Below, in pieces: positions 14,080-23,212 of a stretch of 64,000 nucleotides of DNA. How positions within the stretch are numbered: position 1 is the first letter of the stretch; each line of letters opens with the position of its first letter. Under the pieces are notes generated by a model, which was not told where the DNA came from, ran no database searches, and worked only from the letters and a program-made list of their open reading frames with translations. Made by a program: the position numbers and the translations under genes. Source of the stretch: Glycera tridactyla (lineage: Eukaryota); the NCBI GenBank assembly GCA_965644265.1, contig OZ286461.1, forward strand, positions 95,046,001 through 95,110,000, written 5' to 3'.

Positions 14080-14342
14080 GTTATTAAAAATGTTGACCAT
14101 GGTGTCACCATGTGAACATGTAGGGATTCATTCACATAGCTTCCACAAATAGTCTGTTCAACGGGAGTTGAGACCTCATCTGACAGCTACTCTTGTGTCT
14201 GGCGGATGGGAAGCCCCTCCTCCCAGGCCTCAACTCCCGTTGAATAGACATTAGGTCAGTTATTTTAGGCCATTGTGTTACACAGCGAACATGGCCTCCA
14301 CTTGGCCGGTTGGGGATGTACTCCATAGGATCTGTGTGTGGA

Positions 14343-15309
14343 CACACACATTTTTTTAGTGATAGAAATCATGTCAGAGACATATTTCCAGATTGTACTG
14401 GCAACAGGTCCATGAAATGTGTTCCAAATGCCCAAATTATTTTTTGGCTTGTATGGGATTTGAACCATCAACCTTCCAGTTTGGCACCCTCGCCAGCAAC
14501 AAACTGCCAACGCTCTTGTCCCCTGCCCCACGGCAGAACCACAAAAATGGATCTGCAATGGACGCAGTTAAGCCAGAGCGCTGGCAGTGTGTTACCCCCA
14601 GAGGTCAATGTATCACGAAACCTGGCACTCACATTCACACACATTTTTTTAGTGATAGAAATCATGTCAGAGACATATTTCCAGATTGTACTGGCAACAG
14701 GTCCATGAAATGTGTTCCAAATGCCCAAATTATTTTTTGGCTTGTATGGGATTTGAACCATCAACCTTCCAGTTTGGCACCCTCGCCAGCAACAAACTGC
14801 CAACGCTCTTGTCCCCTGCCCCACGGCAGAACCACAAAAATGGATCTGCAATGGACGCAGTTAAGCCAGAGCGCTGGCAGTGTGTTACCCCCAGAGGTCA
14901 ATGTATCACGAAACCTGGCACTCACATTCACACACATTTTTTTAGTGATAGAAATCATGTCAGAGACATATTTCCAGATTGTACTGGCAACAGGTCCATG
15001 AAATGTGTTCCAAATGCCCAAATTATTTTTTGGCTTGTATGGGATTTGAACCATCAACCTTCCAGTTTGGCACCCTCGCCAGCAACAAACTGCCAACGCT
15101 CTTGTCCCCTGCCCCACGGCAGAACCACAAAAATGGATCTGCAATGGACGCAGTTAAGCCAGAGCGCTGGCAGTGTGTTACCCCCAGAGGTCAATGTATC
15201 ACGAAACCTGGCACTCACATTCACACACATTTTTTTAGTGATAGAAATCATGTCAGAGACATATTTCCAGATTGTACTGGCAACAGGTCCATGAAATGTG
15301 TTCCAAATG

Positions 15310-15310
<1 letters not shown>
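14343..15310 (-). repeat. Tandem array of ~3.3 identical 293-bp units with a tRNA-like (B-box) segment
   Basis: Exact 293-bp period (identical ORF translations start at 14393, 14686 and 14979). Each unit contains GGTTCAAATCCC on the minus strand. CA runs bound both ends. Confidence 0.9.

Positions 15311-15384
<74 letters not shown>
15311..15384. repeat. (CA)n microsatellite
   Basis: About 37 perfect CA units. Confidence 0.98.
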
Positions 15385-15386
<2 letters not shown>

Positions 15387-16255
15387 GTGAGTGTGTGGGG
15401 GCAGGGTAAAGGGCATGTATTATCAATTACACGACCAGTTGAGTGAGTTTGACTACCAACATTTGATCCTGTTGGTGGTGGCAATGTTTGAATGTACTAA
15501 GGCAAACCTATTCCCTACCTCTCCGAATGGTAGGGCATAAATCAGTACTAGAAGCCTCACATTTTCACGTGATGGGTTCACTTCAAAACTGTGTCCTCAG
15601 AGTGATGACAGGTCAGGATGACAGGAAATGGCCTCCAATCCCACCTCACAAGTTTCCACACAGTGGTAAATCCACCAAGTATGATGCATACTGTGTATGC
15701 CAAAAGCATATACTGAGAAAGACTATACAATATGTCGGGAGTTTGTTCTTTCATACAAGTGGTATTTTTTTGTATAAAGTCTTGGCAGGTGGTGGTGTGC
15801 TGTGACTGGATGCTACACAGCTGCTTGCCCTGAATCTGTCAAGCCAATTACAGCGACCACACAAAAAGTTCTGACAATGAATACACCGTAGGTCTGAAAT
15901 AATTGATGTTTTTTTGCCAATTCAGGAGTTTACCTTTGACCTTTGGTTGCTGATTTCAGCTGCAACTTTTCTAATGCCCGACACGATTGCTCAATCGTGT
16001 CAGCTGAGTACTTTCCTCAGATCATTTTGGAAGGCATGGGGATTGTTGTTCACTTGTAACTGTCAGCTGTTTGTCTCCTGACAACATATTTTGACGTGTG
16101 TGCTCACTGCACACAATTCGTCGAATTAGTTGAGGGAGTTAAATCAAACAATAGTCTTCAATGTCTGCTATTAGGTTAGTGGATGTAACCCCCCCCCCCC
16201 CCCCCCCGGAGTTGGATGCTGCATTCTCTCTGAAAAATCATAGCAGAGGCAGGCA

Positions 16256-16451: not shown

Positions 16452-16957
16452 AGTTGTGACTATGTGAGATACGGGTAGCGTATCTAGCCCTCGGGTTGGA
16501 TCAGCATACACTCTCATATACATCATCTCTCTTCTTGGTGTATCCCGGGGCAGTTTTGTCTTTTCTTGCCCTACAAGAAGTTGATCACATCATTTGATGC
16601 CAGTATGTGCACCCATCACACTTAGTGACATTCTGTGTACTCATCACATCACTCGGTGAGTTATGTATTTATCATACTATTTGCTGACAGTTTTGAATAT
16701 CACAAATAACATAACATAACAAAACATCGGAGGTTCCGGTTCCGGTTGAAGTCAACCAGAAGACCCTATTACTATGCTCCTCTAAATCTGGATATATCAC
16801 AACCATCTGACTGGTAGAAGAACAACAAACAACAGGAACTGTTACATTATCTGATCTGGATTGTGCACATGTGTTTCGTTGGATCATACTATCTGTGAAA
16901 TCAGCCTATTGGACTACATAAACATTTGGTGGCCCGAGAGGCTACAGGTGGTTCAAC

Positions 16958-17944
16958 ATGGCGGATGTCGCCAGCCAGGATATGGTGAGGCCAGTATTTC
17001 TGAAGGAGGCCGATATCCTGAGTGAAGAAGCCCTGACTGTGAGAGGACTATGTGCTGCAGCAGAAGCAGTGACAGGATATAACACTATTGATGGTGCTCA
17101 GAATATTAGAGGTCTATGGAGATTGTACCCCAAAACTGAGGATGCAAGAGCTGAACTCCTGCTGAGTGGACTAACTTTATCAGGCATGCACATGACTTTG
17201 TGGGACCGAAACCCATTCCTGTTACATGACAACAAAGGGGAAGAGGTTCCAACCACTAGGTTGCTTGTATCAGACATTCCGTTGTCATATACCAACGAGG
17301 ATATTATCAAAGCCCTGGAAGCCATTGGATGTGTTTTCATGTCAAAATTGATATACGAGTGTGATCGTGATGAGAACAGGCGTCTCACCAGGTGGAAGAC
17401 TGGCAGGAGATTTGCCTACATAGCTATCCCTCCAGCACCCCTAGTGAGGTCACTCAGAGTTGGACTATTTGAAGCACGGCTCTATCACAAAGAACAAAAA
17501 CTCAGCATGCAGAGATCTACAGCAACCTGCTACCAGTGCCTGCAACCTGGCCACTTCCAGAGGGAATGTGTTAATCAGATTAGATGCCGGGTGTGCAGGA
17601 AGGAAGGACATAAGGCGGGAGATGCTGTATGCAGGTTGGTGCCAACGGAGAGAGAGGCACAGCTGCTGGAGGAGGGGGAGGTACAGGAGGATGACCAGCG
17701 TGAGCCATCCAGTCACCCTGATGGGGTGGATAACGGTATGGGGGAGGGCAGCGAGGATGATGACCAGCCAACCCCCACAGACACACCCAAGCAGCAGAGC
17801 TCCTTAACGAAATGGATAAATCGCAAGAAGGAGAAGCGTAATCCAACATCACCCTGTGAGGTCAGATCTAATGGCAAGCCAGCCAAAATTACCAAGCATG
17901 GTGGATCATTTGAGAAGAAAGTGGAGGTGAAGACTGGTACTTGA
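16958..17944 (+). CDS. LINE ORF1 nucleic-acid-binding protein (328 aa)
   Basis: Zinc knuckles CYQCLQPGHFQREC (CX2CX4HX4C) and CRVCRKEGHKAGDAVC, followed by an acidic/basic disordered tail. Lies directly upstream of ORF2. Confidence 0.92.
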   Translation: MADVASQDMVRPVFLKEADILSEEALTVRGLCAAAEAVTGYNTIDGAQNIRGLWRLYPKTEDARAELLLSGLTLSGMHMTLWDRNPFLLHDNKGEEVPTTRLLVSDIPLSYTNEDIIKALEAIGCVFMSKLIYECDRDENRRLTRWKTGRRFAYIAIPPAPLVRSLRVGLFEARLYHKEQKLSMQRSTATCYQCLQPGHFQRECVNQIRCRVCRKEGHKAGDAVCRLVPTEREAQLLEEGEVQEDDQREPSSHPDGVDNGMGEGSEDDDQPTPTDTPKQQSSLTKWINRKKEKRNPTSPCEVRSNGKPAKITKHGGSFEKKVEVKTGT

Positions 17945-18020
17945 TATTTTATTGCCATGCAAGGACTGATCTATGGATAATGATCTTGGAATGCCCCTGG
18001 ACATAATGCAACCCTGAATA

Positions 18021-21000
18021 ATGGTCAAAATACTCTCTATAAATTGCCGTGGTTTGAGGAATATTTTGAAGAGGAAATCGATGTTTCGAATGTTCAAAAA
18101 AGAAAAATATGATATAATTTGTTTACAGGAAACCTACATCACAGAAGCTGACACTGAGGCATGGACAAAACAATGGGGTGGGCCTTTATATGCCTCTTAT
18201 GGCACGGTCCATAGCAAAGGCTTGGTAATTTTATTGAGGAAAAATAGTCAGCTGGAAAATATCAGTTTCCAAGCTAGTTGTGACCGTATCATATCTCTTT
18301 CTTTTGTGCTGATGCAGAAGAAAATTACTGTGCTAAATGTGCATGCTCCTAACCAGGATAATGAAAAACATGCTTTTCTTTTACAGCTCGAAACTTTATA
18401 TAACACACTGGATGCAGAAGATGGCTCTCTGATTGTGGGTGATTTTAACATGGTTCAAAATAACAAACTTGATATCATATCAGGAAGTCCCCATAATCAG
18501 AGAATCAGCACACTTTTTGAATCAACATTGAGCATCCTCAATGTTTTTGATGTATGGAGGATGCTCCATGGTGAGGAAAAACAGTATACCTGGTGCAAAA
18601 CTAACCCTTTTATTGCCAGACGTTTGGATTATTCTCTAGTCTCAGAACAGCTGTTGGACAGATTAATATCCTGTGAAATAATTCCTGTACCTAACACTGA
18701 CCATAATGGGGTGGTAACTGAGTTACAGCTGCAAGATGTGAAACGCGGGAAATCTCATTGGAAATTCAATGAACAGCTATTGAATTTGCCAGAATATGTT
18801 GCAATGATAAATAATTTGATTGAGAAGACAAAGAATTCACCTGCGAATGTAAGTGCCCAGCAAAAATGGGATTTGTGCAAGATTAAGATAAAAGAATCCT
18901 CCATCAATTTTTCAAAACGGCGAGCCAAGATTGTATGTGACCATCAAAAATTATTGCAATCGAAGCTGAAAAATCAAGAGCTCGCCTTGTCCACAAATCC
19001 ACATGATGGTGATTTGCTGGAACTTATGAAAGACACAAAATTGGCACTTGATTTATATGCTCTGCAGGTAGCCCAAGGGGCGCAAATAAGATCACGGGTC
19101 AGATGGATAGAAGAAGGTGAAAAGAACACAAAATATTTTTTGAATTTGGAAAAGGCTAATGCATCTTCGAAAACCATAACATCCCTAAAAGATGAATATG
19201 GCAAATCCCACTCAGAACAATCCACTATACTTAACATTCAACAGCAGTTTTATAGCAGACTGTATTCCAAGAAATTTGAGTTTTCCTCAGTAACTGAAAC
19301 AATAGAAAGATTTTGTGATGATTTAGACATACCTAACTTGAGTGAAGCTGAAAAAGAATCTTGTGAAGGGCCTGCTACATTAGCAGAATTAGATGATGCC
19401 CTAAAACACCTGAACAGTGTCTCAGCACCAGGCTCAGATGGCCTGACAGTGCCTTTTTATAAATGTTTTTGGGACCAGATAAAAGAGATGGTACTAGACT
19501 CGGTCAACTCATCTCTTGAGGCGGGTTCTCTGTCAACCCTACAGAAACAAGGGATAATAACGCTCTTCCACAAGGGTAAAGGGTTAGCTCGTGATGAGCT
19601 GAATAATTGGAGACCGATTACTCTTACAAACACTGATTATAAAATAATCACAAAAGTGCTAGCAATTCGCATGCAAGCAGTGGTTAAAAGTATCATACAC
19701 AACAATCAAGTGGGATATATCAAAGGTCGTAACATATCAACAATCATTCGTACTATAGATGATGTGATAGAATTCATAGATGTAAATAATGATACAGGGG
19801 CAATAATCGCTCTTGATTATGCAAAAGCTTTTGATTCCATCAACAAACAGTTCATGTGTAAGGTGTTCCAGTTGTTTGGGTTTGGTGATACCTTCGTGAA
19901 ATGGGTGGAGACTATCACAGCTAAAACAGTAAGCTGTGTTAGTCACTGTGGCTGGAAAACACAATATTTCAATGCTGACAGTGGTATAAGGCAGGGTTGT
20001 CCATTCTCACCATTAGCATTCATTTTAGCAGTTGAACTGCTCGCTTTGAAAATACGGCAAACTGATGGGATTGAAGGTATACAACTCCCAAGAACCAACC
20101 TAGGGCAGGATGTATGCATAAAAATTTTACAGTATGCAGATGACACAACACTTCTTCTCAAAGATCAAAATGATGTCATCAATGCCCTTACTTTGATTGA
20201 ACAATATGCAAAGTTCAGTGGTCTAAATCTGAATAGAAATAAAAGTGAAGCGATGTGGTTGGGCTGTTTGAAAGATTCCAGAGAATGTGTGGGAGGTATA
20301 ACTTGGAAGTTTGAGAATCCACAAGTGGAAATACTTGGGGTCATATTCAGCAACAGGGAGAGGGTTTCAGAGATAAAAGAAAATTGGGAAGGCAGAATTG
20401 AAAGAGTAATAAGACTGATAAAAACATGGGAAAAACGGGACCTCTCAATCATAGGAAAAATTCACATAGTTAAGACATTTTTACTATCACAATTTGTTTA
20501 CCTCATGCAATCAATTTGCCTACCTGATACAACTCTCAGGGAGATAAATACAATTATTTTCAAATTCATATGGAAAAAGCGACATAACAATAGGAAAGCA
20601 TTTGAGAAGGTACGTAGAAATGTTGTTTGCAGCAGTACCAAACATGGTGGCCTGAACATGATAAGCATTATTGATATGCAACAGTCTTTTCTAATTGAAT
20701 GGGTGAAAAAGATATGGTTCAATCAAGAAGAATATTGGGCACATTTACCATCTTTTCACTTGAATCAACTTGGTCCACATTTTGCAATATTGAGATCAAA
20801 TGTGTGCAAAAAGTCCTGTATAGGCTTAGAACGGGTGAAATCACAATTCTGGAGAAAAGTTGTCATAGCTTGGCTTGAAAATCAGGTAAAATTGTCTTTG
20901 AATGACATTGCCCCCAATGAAATAAAATACCAGTGCATATGGAACAATCGCAATTTAACTTACCAGGGGAGAGTACTATTTATGCACGAATGGATGGAAA

Positions 21001-21734
21001 AAGGGCTGATATCTGTTGGAGACCTGTATTGTGAAGGGCACTTCATGTCATACATTGAATTGGTAAATAAAATTGGTTACACACCTGCTCTTTTATTACA
21101 ATATAACGTTGTGAAAAATGCCCTACCAGCAGGGTGGAAAAATGTTCTTGAAGATACTGGTCCTTTTAGAAACCCCACATTAGGGGAAAATGATATCAGC
21201 TTGTTGACTGCTAGAAAGACGCGTGAACTGATCACAATAGGGAAGTGGAAGGCTCCTTGCAGTGTAAACTTCTGGGCCAACAAATATATTGGTTTAGAAC
21301 TAGGCCCCAATCACTGGAGTTTGGCTTTTGAAGTAGCAAGTGAGACAAGATTGAGGACATTACAATGGAAAATTCTCCACAATATTTATCCTACCCAGAT
21401 ACTGCTGATGAAAATGGGTGTGACTGACAATAACAGATGTCCCTATTGTAATGAGGTGGATTATATTGAACATTTTTTCTATGTATGCCCTGTGGCACAA
21501 TCTATCTGGTCTCATGTGGAGCAGAAATTATCTAATATCTGGGATCAGAACATTTTGCTTGATGAAAAAACTGTCTTGTTCGGATTGCTTGAAGGCTACA
21601 ACAATGCTTTGAGAAAACTTATCAATCTTTATGTATTAATTGGGAAGATGTGTATATCTAAGTTTAAATATGGCTCCTATCATGATATCAAATCTCTTTT
21701 TGATTATGAAGTCAAACTTCGAGAAAAAGTGTAG
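18021..21734 (+). CDS. LINE ORF2: APE endonuclease, reverse transcriptase and C-terminal zinc motif (1237 aa, uninterrupted)
   Basis: APE motifs SINCRGL, LQET, GDFN, RLDY and TDH. RT motifs PGSDG, WRPITL, LDYAKAFDS, GIRQGCPFSP and YADD. C-terminal CPYC...HFFYVC. Confidence 0.97.
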   Translation: MVKILSINCRGLRNILKRKSMFRMFKKEKYDIICLQETYITEADTEAWTKQWGGPLYASYGTVHSKGLVILLRKNSQLENISFQASCDRIISLSFVLMQKKITVLNVHAPNQDNEKHAFLLQLETLYNTLDAEDGSLIVGDFNMVQNNKLDIISGSPHNQRISTLFESTLSILNVFDVWRMLHGEEKQYTWCKTNPFIARRLDYSLVSEQLLDRLISCEIIPVPNTDHNGVVTELQLQDVKRGKSHWKFNEQLLNLPEYVAMINNLIEKTKNSPANVSAQQKWDLCKIKIKESSINFSKRRAKIVCDHQKLLQSKLKNQELALSTNPHDGDLLELMKDTKLALDLYALQVAQGAQIRSRVRWIEEGEKNTKYFLNLEKANASSKTITSLKDEYGKSHSEQSTILNIQQQFYSRLYSKKFEFSSVTETIERFCDDLDIPNLSEAEKESCEGPATLAELDDALKHLNSVSAPGSDGLTVPFYKCFWDQIKEMVLDSVNSSLEAGSLSTLQKQGIITLFHKGKGLARDELNNWRPITLTNTDYKIITKVLAIRMQAVVKSIIHNNQVGYIKGRNISTIIRTIDDVIEFIDVNNDTGAIIALDYAKAFDSINKQFMCKVFQLFGFGDTFVKWVETITAKTVSCVSHCGWKTQYFNADSGIRQGCPFSPLAFILAVELLALKIRQTDGIEGIQLPRTNLGQDVCIKILQYADDTTLLLKDQNDVINALTLIEQYAKFSGLNLNRNKSEAMWLGCLKDSRECVGGITWKFENPQVEILGVIFSNRERVSEIKENWEGRIERVIRLIKTWEKRDLSIIGKIHIVKTFLLSQFVYLMQSICLPDTTLREINTIIFKFIWKKRHNNRKAFEKVRRNVVCSSTKHGGLNMISIIDMQQSFLIEWVKKIWFNQEEYWAHLPSFHLNQLGPHFAILRSNVCKKSCIGLERVKSQFWRKVVIAWLENQVKLSLNDIAPNEIKYQCIWNNRNLTYQGRVLFMHEWMEKGLISVGDLYCEGHFMSYIELVNKIGYTPALLLQYNVVKNALPAGWKNVLEDTGPFRNPTLGENDISLLTARKTRELITIGKWKAPCSVNFWANKYIGLELGPNHWSLAFEVASETRLRTLQWKILHNIYPTQILLMKMGVTDNNRCPYCNEVDYIEHFFYVCPVAQSIWSHVEQKLSNIWDQNILLDEKTVLFGLLEGYNNALRKLINLYVLIGKMCISKFKYGSYHDIKSLFDYEVKLREKV

Positions 21735-22534
21735 AACATGGTAGTCAAAATATGTAATGATCAGTGTGTGGTATGATGGGGGTTAGCTTCTCCTGGCCCC
21801 TCTGAAATGAATGTCAAGCTGTGAATGTAGAGACGAGGGTCAGGGGAGGAGGAGCAGACTCTAGACACAGTCAACAAGCATGAGGTGTGTGATCATGCAG
21901 TATACTATATGCTAGAAATATCCATGGGGATGTGAAGCTCATTGACCTTGATAATTGGAACCATATTTTGATGAGCAGGCGTCTAGCATTGGGTCGCGGA
22001 TGGGGAGAGTGGACCCCTTGCTGTGGTGTAATAGAAACTGACAAGTTGAAGGTACTGGCCACTCATGATCAGGTGTGTTGGCCATCATCATTGTAAATAC
22101 CTGGTTTTGTATTTTTTGTAAATAAATGTTGATTTAAAAAAAAAATAAAAAAAAAAAAAAAAATATATATATATAACAAAACATAACATAACATAACATA
22201 GTTTATTTTTATAAGCTCAACACAACGGAAATGGGCATATATTGTCCGCGCGTGAGCGCTGAAAAAAAATACATATGGGAAACGGCTAAGTACTCCCAGC
22301 AAGGTAACCAATTCAAAAGATTAACTGACCCACAGCAGTACTCATGTAGCTACTAGGGACGACACTGGAATCACATCAAGCTCATATTATACAAGTCAAG
22401 ATAGGCGTAATGGGCATTATTAGAACTGGAGACAATCAGCCATAGCAGGCACTTAAGACTGGTTTGCGCCCCCCCCCCCCCCCCCCCACACACATAGATT
22501 GATTTCATGATCATTCGTATACGTAAATTAATCA

Positions 22535-23212
22535 TTATAAATGCTTATAGTAGTATTCACGTAGTGCCCTCTTGTACGAGAGTGTAGATGTAGCGTTTTG
22601 CAGTTCAGTCGGGCGTGCATTCCACACAGAGATTGCCCTATACATAAAGGAGCATCTGCCGATCTCGGTTTTCCGGCGCGGCAGATTCATACCTCCGCCA
22701 CATAAATGCCGTGTACGTAGTGTTTCTCTGTGGTAATCCGGCATTTGACCCGAAAACAAGTCATATAGATGTGCAGATGTTTCCCTGTGACGGATTTTAA
22801 ATGTTTCTAGTAGTGTCTGCTTACTCCGACACGTGCTGAGACTAAGTAGGTTACATTGTTTCAAGAGAGTTTCTCGTGGTATCTCAGGGCCAGATTGTGC
22901 TACACACCGCAACAGATCATAGAAAGCAGAGTCTAGTTTAGCCAATAGGGTTTTGTTCCCGCCCCCATAGATTGTGTTCCCATAATTTACAGGTGATATT
23001 AAGACCATTAAAGCAAGTTGTCTTGCCGATCGTAGATCCATGTATGGTCTATTCCTTCGCAATTGGGCGGTGCGTCTGCGCAGGTCTTTGGTTAACTTCG
23101 TTATGTGATACATAAAAGACAGATTGTCATCGAGAAGCAGACCGAGATATTTCACTTGATGGATGTGTGCAATTGATATTCTTTTATGGTCCCCATAGAA
23201 TACCATAAACAC
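22535..23212 (-). pseudogene. 5'-truncated L2/CR1-group LINE ORF2 C-terminus
   Basis: KYLGLLLDDNLSFMYHI and SFMYRAISVWN are typical post-RT motifs. Downstream on the minus strand, AATAAA (~22202-22207) is followed by a (TATGT)n tail that the Tx1 element interrupts. Confidence 0.85.

Follow-up and report, generated by a model that had tools for sequence, protein, structure and literature searches.

Clade-wide features of the spacer between ORF1 and ORF2 in L1-superfamily retrotransposons related to an element of Glycera tridactyla

The DNA analysed here, referred to as the window, is a stretch of 64,000 nucleotides of the Glycera tridactyla genome (assembly GCA_965644265.1, contig OZ286461.1, positions 95,046,001 to 95,110,000 of the forward strand). 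It contains a young, full-length retrotransposon of the type without long terminal repeats (non-LTR), designated family A. The present work concerns the spacer that separates the two open reading frames (ORFs) of this element, ORF1 and ORF2, together with the corresponding spacers of related families. Translation of ORF2 from the bicistronic RNAs of long interspersed nuclear elements (LINEs) is still called unclear in a published account (PMC5381506). The coordinates of all features are collected in Table 1.

The element has both a poly(A) tail and a target-site duplication, by which non-LTR retrotransposons of the L1 superfamily are recognized; the tail begins at 22136, behind an AATAAA at 22121-22126. 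The 5′ end is common to the 12 of 17 family-A copies whose locus reached it, the flanks being unrelated, and no target-site specificity was seen among 12 5′ flanks and 18 3′ ends. A zf-CCHC match at residues 190-204 of the ORF1 protein scored above cut-off and no RRM family match was obtained at E 0.1; type I ORF1 proteins, with an RRM plus a CCHC knuckle, are described as typical of Tx1 (PMC5203782). The ORF2 protein matches PF03372 (residues 5-228), PF00078 (527-775) and PF13966, i.e. it has an N-terminal APE and a reverse transcriptase, and its best solved relative is human L1 ORF2p (E 6e-89; R2, 1e-18). Judged by its sequence, the element is an intact LINE of the L1 superfamily, the label Tx1-like being given by domain content.

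A reading of the window made from the letters alone (the sequence-only reading) had described three mini-ORFs, a, b and c, between the ORF1 stop (TGA, 17942-17944) and the ORF2 ATG (18021), and three TAATG pentamers at 17978, 18004 and 18019, all inside 46 nt. These positions are correct, and for the contig from one sequencing run that covers the spacer no difference is listed within it. The pentamers were thought to link stops to starts in a chain leading into ORF2. This holds for the overlaps between a and b and between b and c. The third link is absent, because the TAA at 18019 lies in frame b behind that frame's own stop and so ends no AUG-started frame; mini-ORF c ends 3 nt before ORF2, in the same frame and without overlap. 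The pentamers do not step through all three frames as proposed, the second and third being in the same phase; the mini-ORFs do. Two further AUGs in the ORF2 frame had been missed, at 17973 (MDNDLGMPLDIMQP) and 17991 (MPLDIMQP). Both frames end at the TGA at 18015, so that mini-ORF c is the tail of a 14-codon frame, and it is this frame, opened at 17973, that ends at the doorstep of ORF2 in the window copy. The spacer thus holds five AUG-started mini-frames, with a purine at -3 for four of the five AUGs, and with five upstream AUGs plain scanning to ORF2 would be unlikely in family A. The ORF1 stop and the ATG of mini-ORF a do not overlap, 12 nt lying between them; the window copy has no complete path from ORF1 to ORF2. 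The TAATG density of the window predicts 0.11 clusters of three in 46 nt for each 64-kb strand, and three occur in 1.3% of dinucleotide shuffles of the spacer. The two working stop-start overlaps are at chance level (shuffle mean 1.66, P = 0.52).

Table 1. Features of the family-A element in the window
Feature	Positions	Strand	Remark
Tx1/L1-like non-LTR retrotransposon, family A, full-length, young	16732..22163	+	spans 5′ end to poly(A) tail
Target-site duplication, 5′ copy, 12 nt	16716..16727	+	identical 12-mer at 22173-22184
Target-site duplication, 3′ copy	22173..22184	+	matches 12-mer at 16716-16727
ORF1, 328 aa	16958..17944	+	CCHC zinc knuckle; ends Thr (ACT) + TGA
Thr-stop (ACH + TGA/TAA), ORF1 end	17939..17944	+	17/17 families
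Inter-ORF spacer, 76 nt	17945..18020	+
Mini-ORF a, MQGLIYG, ORF1 frame	17957..17980	+	ATG 17957; TAA 17978 overlaps ATG of b (TAATG 17978-17982)
GGAC site 1 (GGACT)	17963..17967	+	+19 from ORF1 stop; GGA at +14..+25 in 11/12 clade-1 families
14-codon frame MDNDLGMPLDIMQP, ORF2 frame	17973..18017	+	internal AUGs 17991 and 18006
Mini-ORF b, MILECPWT	17980..18006	+	ATG 17980; TAA 18004 overlaps ATG of c (TAATG 18004-18008)
GGA site 2 (GGAATGCCCC in window)	17988..17997	+
GGAC site 3 (GGACA)	17999..18003	+	+55 from ORF1 stop, directly before pentamer 2; GGA at +51..+59 in 12/12 clade-1 families
Mini-ORF c, MQP	18006..18017	+	ATG 18006; TGA 18015, at -6 from ORF2 AUG
Third TAATG	18019..18023	+	TAA is a back-up stop in frame b, ends no frame in window copy
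ORF2, 1237 aa	18021..21734	+	APE endonuclease, reverse transcriptase, zf-RVT

Seventeen families were compared. Families A-I come from the window's genome and were found by searches with the spacer region, ORF2 and ORF1; family I is represented by one decayed copy only, and two distant ORF1 queries gave no new intact families in that genome. Families X74-X81 are eight of nine outside loci with a spacer (L082, with no ORF2 start, was dropped), and seven of the eight are from one assembly project. Those ORF1 homologues that carry names come from marine gastropods; searches of viral contigs and prokaryote genomes found no relatives. In the first 75 residues of ORF2 the other families are 47-71% identical to A, and spacer length varies from 73 to 230 nt. 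The tree of the 17 families, drawn with a midpoint root for display only, shows a split with 100/100 support between 12 families (A-F, X74-X78, X81; clade 1) and five (G, H, I, X79, X80; clade 2). As a separate observation, A and E are identical at 21 of 22 nt of the spacer (17963-17984 versus the L038 spacer, -93) despite endonucleases that are only ~45-52% identical, which is either strong constraint or exchange between families.

An AUG-started spacer frame with its stop at -6 to +5 of the ORF2 AUG (a doorstep frame) was found in 11 of 12 clade-1 families and in none of the five of clade 2. In dinucleotide shuffles 6.05 of the 17 families are expected to have one (p 0.005), and within clade 1 5.75 of 12 (p 0.0008). 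When only upstream stops (-6 to -2) are counted, the number is 8/17 versus 2.45 (p 0.0007). Other windows gave p 0.03-0.05 (-5 to +4) and p 0.002-0.017 (-10 to +10). When each supported group was represented by a single pick (7 picks, 100 combinations), such a frame was present in 5-6 of the seven versus 2.8 expected (p 0.001-0.074, median 0.01). The TGA at -6 of the window copy is also present in X74, X75, X76 and X78.

In some families the doorstep frame is in turn joined to a stop further upstream. A two-step link, in which the AUG of the frame ending at ORF2 overlaps a true stop, occurs in 8/17 families versus 1.67 expected, and this excess persists in shuffles that leave GGA 5-mers or the last 8 nt unchanged. 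A complete path from ORF1 to ORF2 exists in four families (C, E, X78 and X81) versus 0.76 expected; in X81 it is an unbroken TGATG / TAATG / ATGA chain. The long spacers of C, D, E, F and X77 contain 14 stops from -65 to -8, not one of which falls in the bridging frame (binomial p 0.003). This frame is 21-29 codons long in C-F and open for 52 codons in X77, where its AUG is farther from ORF2 than in C, D and F by 93 nt, or 31 codons. Mini-ORF b of the window copy has, relative to ORF2, the frame that is also used for bridging in B, C, D, E, F, X76, X77 and X81. A conserved bridging peptide was considered and rejected, since the peptides differ between families. In family H (L046, L047, L048, L049, L061, L064) a 15-codon spacer frame ends at about -25 of the ORF2 AUG, and the same end point is marked by TGA, TAA or TAG depending on the copy.

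The conserved geometry would also fit a repressive role, in which the mini-frames are decoys comparable to ATF4 uORF2 or GCN4 uORF4 (uORF, upstream ORF). Ribosomes that resume scanning behind ORF1 would be caught by the spacer AUGs and released too near to the ORF2 AUG or past it, so that they could not restart there, and ORF2 would be made only by ribosomes that skip the mini-frames, e.g. under stress, with little ternary complex available. Families B, C, X75, X76 and X81 have stops beyond the ORF2 AUG, at +1, +4 and +5, which agree with this explanation, and little ORF2p is needed by LINEs (PMC3894237). A repressor, however, need not end within six bases of the AUG, and the unbroken chains that start at the ORF1 stop are better explained by a hand-over of ribosomes. 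Moreover, a megabat L1 spacer deprived of AUGs lowered rather than raised retrotransposition (PMC4072516). We consider repression by decoys an unlikely explanation of the spacer.

The second feature of the spacers is a cluster of GGAC sites. The tetranucleotide is present in 17/17 spacers, with 32 sites versus 9.4 expected, and its density (16.7 per kb) exceeds that in the flanking 300 nt of ORF1 (3.3) and of ORF2 (4.1). Counted from the ORF1 stop, the sites of clade 1 lie close to +19, +44 and +56, and in all five families of clade 2 there is one at +36/37. Site 2 is of GGAC type in X74-X76, X78 and older B copies and corresponds to the invariant site of G, H, I, X79 and X80. The sites form clusters of the DRACH motif (62 versus 44.3 expected in the 17 spacers; GGACT, 21 versus 3.5), the consensus for N6-methyladenosine (m6A). 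In clade 2 we also observed a near-palindrome, GGAC-Y-GTCC, invariant at +36/37 in 5/5 families (L043, L046, L065, L079, L080), which could be a DNA-level site.

The third feature is the end of ORF1 itself, where the last sense codon is ACT, ACC or ACA in 17/17 families. The ORF1 tails are unalignable; the terminal Thr is nonetheless invariant in the eight aligned ORF1s. Thr also ends 35 of 112 further ORF1 homologues versus 7% in their tails (p 3e-14), the Thr count at positions -2 to -7 being 4-11. The 112 are 120 database proteins minus eight matching loci already counted; 43 of the 120 end in Thr, and WG, LC and ND are other recurring ends. The cause may be a codon effect on termination or a C-terminal signal of the protein. 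A DRACH site as cause was rejected, as most ORF1 ends are not DRACH.

These observations allow another explanation, in which selection acts on the GGAC cluster, whose flanking letters (ATGGAC, GGACTAATG) produce the AUGs and stops as by-products. The cluster could act as m6A read by eukaryotic initiation factor 3 (eIF3) or YTH proteins, as a binding site of the ORF1 zinc knuckles or another protein, or as a shield of the long-tailed RNA from nonsense-mediated decay. Zinc knuckles bind GG-rich RNA, and reinitiation has a role in escaping decay. GGAC is the only spacer motif common to both clades, its positions are fixed to the ORF1 stop and not to ORF2, and each internal TAATG lies within ~14 nt of a GGA site. 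On human L1 an m6A cluster docks eIF3, but in the 5′ untranslated region (UTR) (PMC7873242). On the other side, fixing GGA 5-mers in the shuffles leaves not only the two-step links but also the doorstep stops and TAATG in excess, and site 2 is GGAAT or GGAAAT, not the m6A consensus, in A, young B, D and F. That the cluster is the selected element seems doubtful to us, and the explanation is not exclusive of bridging by the mini-frames: the two are compatible with each other.

TAATG itself is enriched inside the spacers (14 versus 2.8 expected, in 12/17 families), while TGATG and ATG show no enrichment over dinucleotide shuffles of the 17 spacers. Nine of the 14 open a frame that ends at the ORF2 doorstep, and in seven the TAA ends an AUG-started frame. 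Counted from the A of the ORF2 AUG, TRATG is located at -43, -17 and -2 in A; -16 in B; -105 and -70 in C; -103, -70 and -2 in D; -78 in E; -102, -84, -70 and -2 in F; and -2 in G; it is absent from H, I, X79 and X80. TAATG at the ORF2 AUG occurs in 4/17 families and ends an AUG-started frame only in F.

Within family A all three pentamers were found in 13 of the 17 copies examined (L019 and L021, with the spacer deleted, were left out). These copies differ from the window by 0-25 of 660 nt, and because they are young and near-identical the retention is not evidence of selection. Pentamer 2 is TGATG in the older copies L016 and L020, and the same switch of its stop between TAA and TGA, with the overlap retained, was seen in three B copies. 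The older copies L015, L017 and L018 have lost its AUG; they also share a change at 18203, and the tree does not resolve them as a group. In L015 frame b runs for 13 codons to the third TAA (18019), which directly overlaps the ORF2 AUG, and this state suggests a plausible history for the orphan third TAA. A one-base deletion breaks the extended frame b in L017.

The sequence-only reading had proposed that an obligatory three-step relay through the three TAATG pentamers sets the ORF2:ORF1 ratio. The true overlaps a-b and b-c favour this, as do D and F, with three or four TRATG including one at the ORF2 AUG. Against it, the third TAA is an orphan, the ORF1 stop is not linked to a, the overlaps of the window spacer are at chance level and pentamer 2 is missing from L015, L017 and L018. 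The pentamers are kept by most near relatives in family A and not in the 16 other families, where positions and frames differ. The relay in this obligatory form is very improbable.

A structured RNA element recruiting the ribosome for ORF2, with the mini-frames irrelevant, was also considered; it might resemble either internal ribosome entry sites (IRESs) or the termination upstream ribosome-binding sites (TURBS) of caliciviruses and influenza B. IRES-like elements have been predicted in vertebrate L1 spacers (PMC5381506), and in C, D, E and F the sequence immediately behind the ORF1 stop lets one draw, by eye, short GTCC/GGAC hairpins. No conserved RNA fold was detected, however: z-scores for seven pieces ranged from -0.02 to +1.34, and consensus folding gave 0 consensus pairs for seven short spacers and -4.7 and -0.7 kcal/mol for the other two groups. 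No structure stands out downstream of the ORF2 start in the two families for which 106 nt were folded (z 0.00 for A, 18015-18120; 1.34 for B). Rfam gave no match in the spacer and one weak match (E 4), outside the element. The P1 stem of TURBS, 12-23 nt before the restart AUG, was not found in the spacers, the part that was scanned. Nor was there a Watson-Crick match of 7+ nt to the apex of host 18S helix 26 common to the families. This apex (L071, ~1058-1073) reads UUUCACUG and not the mammalian UUCCCAUG type, so that viral UGGGA elements would not pair with it; GTGAA, the counterpart of UGGGA for the host, occurs only in the C and I spacers. The 9-nt matches to 18S (positions 873-893) are no more than chance would give in 1811 nt. 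Pairing of TAATGAT with the 3′ end of 18S is seen in A, B, C and E; we regard this as a lead only, because the two letters after TAATG differ in D, F and the second pentamer of A. Overall, recruitment by a structured element can hardly be credited. Two further readings of the spacer were rejected: that of a splice acceptor, TTTCAGG being confined to C, D and F, and that of a box C/D-like element, with no shared guide and no Rfam match.

The data could be explained by a spacer acting as a module of termination and reinitiation bridged by uORFs, which would deliver ribosomes from ORF1 to ORF2 at low yield; judged on sequence comparison, we give this about an even chance of being right. Retention of the 40S subunit after ORF1 would be favoured, possibly by way of m6A and eIF3, by the Thr-stop together with the GGA(C) sites that follow it at 15-60 nt. 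The retained 40S would restart at a spacer AUG, often within TAATG, translate a short frame (3-52 codons), terminate about six bases or less from the ORF2 AUG and restart there, the short length of the frame favouring the keeping of initiation factors. Families would drift in how many hops they use (one, two or three) and in the precise overlaps, and the triple TAATG of the window copy would then be one recent state of the module and not its defining form. The general idea of the sequence-only reading, that mini-ORFs carry or gate ribosomes between ORF1 and ORF2, is supported by comparison, through the doorstep frames of 11/12 clade-1 families, the two-step links and the full paths; a conserved relay of three TAATG through all frames is not supported.

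A number of points weigh against delivery by bridging frames. The window of -6 to +5 was picked after the data had been seen, the doorstep p values are optimistic because the families are related, and the excess weakens at -15 to +15 (p 0.08 over 17 families). Strict overlap at the ORF2 AUG (-2/+1; TAATG/ATGA) is found in 4/17 families versus 2.15 expected (p 0.13). The Met-Ile and Met-Leu-Lys codons of ORF2 itself readily create stops at +1 and +4, and a B copy with intact ORF2 (L025/L117) lacks the +1 stop. Spacer ATG counts match those of dinucleotide shuffles (63 versus 59.5), the TAA is an orphan in 7/14 internal TAATG, and many TAATG are homologous to one another. Bridge-less families (G, H, I, X79, X80 and X74) still share the GGAC site and the Thr-stop, so the bridge is not required lineage-wide. 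Finally, short stop-to-start distances and out-of-frame overlapping uORFs often repress (PMC10275272), which also favours the decoys.

Other features of the window and of the element were noted. A GGTTCC repeat at the element start (16732-16750) is common to copies, and the 3′ end GTAAATAAATGTT (22119-22135) is common to families A, B, C, D and F. The ORF1 tail contains a KR..P.SP motif (17837-17857; a basic patch and a proline-directed serine), present in 8/8 aligned tails, which we take to resemble a nuclear signal with a site of the cyclin-dependent kinase type. Outside the element, a tandem array at 14316-15446, with a unit of ~293 nt and repeated 194-codon open frames, adjoins a CA microsatellite. 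On the minus strand at 22535-23206 a 223-codon frame resembles the C-terminal part of another LINE; it has no Pfam match at E 0.1 and by its motifs is presumably CR1/L2-like.

Among known systems the spacer would appear to work more like reinitiation in mammalian L1 than like SART1 or TURBS; the defining features of the latter two were looked for and not found. The silkworm element SART1 uses translational coupling at UAAUG (Kojima et al. 2005, as cited in PMC10275272 and PMC5972666). It is likewise a non-LTR retrotransposon with a UAAUG stop-start pentamer at the ORF2 AUG, but there the ORF1 stop overlaps this AUG, which is the case in none of the 17 families (in the window ORF1 stops 76 nt upstream). 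SART1 also needs downstream structure, for which no fold stands out in the window element, and the TAA at the window ORF2 AUG ends no frame. With TURBS (PMC11921876) the families share a stop and a start a few bases apart, and UAAUG, AUGA and AUG-n-UGA all occur among them. This proximity, however, is provided by the spacer frame, in 11/17 families, and not by ORF1; the families lack a conserved complement of 18S helix 26 or P1 stem, and their conserved motif is located after, not before, the stop of the long ORF.

For mammalian L1 ORF2, translation proceeds through termination-reinitiation of an unconventional kind (Alisch et al. 2006, as cited in PMC5972666, PMC5381506 and PMC4072516), and for human L1 ORF2 it is key that an ORF terminates just upstream (PMC4072516). 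These elements too are bicistronic members of the L1 superfamily with non-overlapping ORFs and a stop-containing spacer of similar length (76 nt in the window versus 63 nt), and in both, ORF2 would presumably need a ribosome that terminates upstream. The window copy differs by its five spacer AUGs, and the cited accounts of the mammalian elements (PMC5972666, PMC5381506, PMC4072516) mention no conserved AUG-started doorstep frame, no GGAC cluster and no conservation of the last ORF1 codon. The nearest experimental precedent is the megabat L1 spacer, where an AUG-free version gave less retrotransposition than the unaltered spacer, a result that its authors interpreted as reinitiation (PMC4072516). 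There too spacer AUGs matter, but the spacer is a mammalian one of 445 nt versus 73-230 nt here, with the doorstep frame mapped in 11 families. As in ATF4/GCN4 (PMC10275272) and ORF35-36 of Kaposi's sarcoma-associated herpesvirus (PMC3561293), several short frames would decide on downstream reinitiation; those uORFs lie in a 5′ leader reached from the cap, whereas the mini-frames of the window follow an ORF of 328 codons. Short frames are known to retain eIF3 and to reinitiate better (PMC10275272). The m6A/eIF3 cluster of human L1 is in the 5′ UTR (PMC7873242), in contrast to the putatively methylated GGAC cluster of the inter-ORF spacer. We found no account of such a spacer pattern in the literature on Tx1-like elements, in a search that left most subscription papers, Repbase and supplements outside.

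The triple pentamer is a family-specific state, and it led to a three-part signature of the spacer that is clade-wide. With some hesitation, we put forward that reinitiation may here be free of structure: the Thr codon and an m6A-type GGAC cluster would hold the 40S, one to three overlapping mini-frames would walk it to ORF2, and the number of hops would tune the ORF2:ORF1 ratio by family. This is improbable as it stands; if true, the module would be the equivalent of TURBS encoded in sequence, and it would answer in general terms how bicistronic LINE RNAs gain access to ORF2. The last sense codon is known to affect recycling of the 40S and reinitiation (PMC7494916, the main text of which does not name Thr), and its conservation at the end of a long ORF would tie in with that effect. 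The 17 families supply naturally varied versions of a short spacer in which three conserved features can be separated, namely the doorstep frame, the GGAC cluster and the Thr-stop. Since the sister clade lacks the doorstep frame, relay, repression and m6A could be told apart with small panels of reporters.

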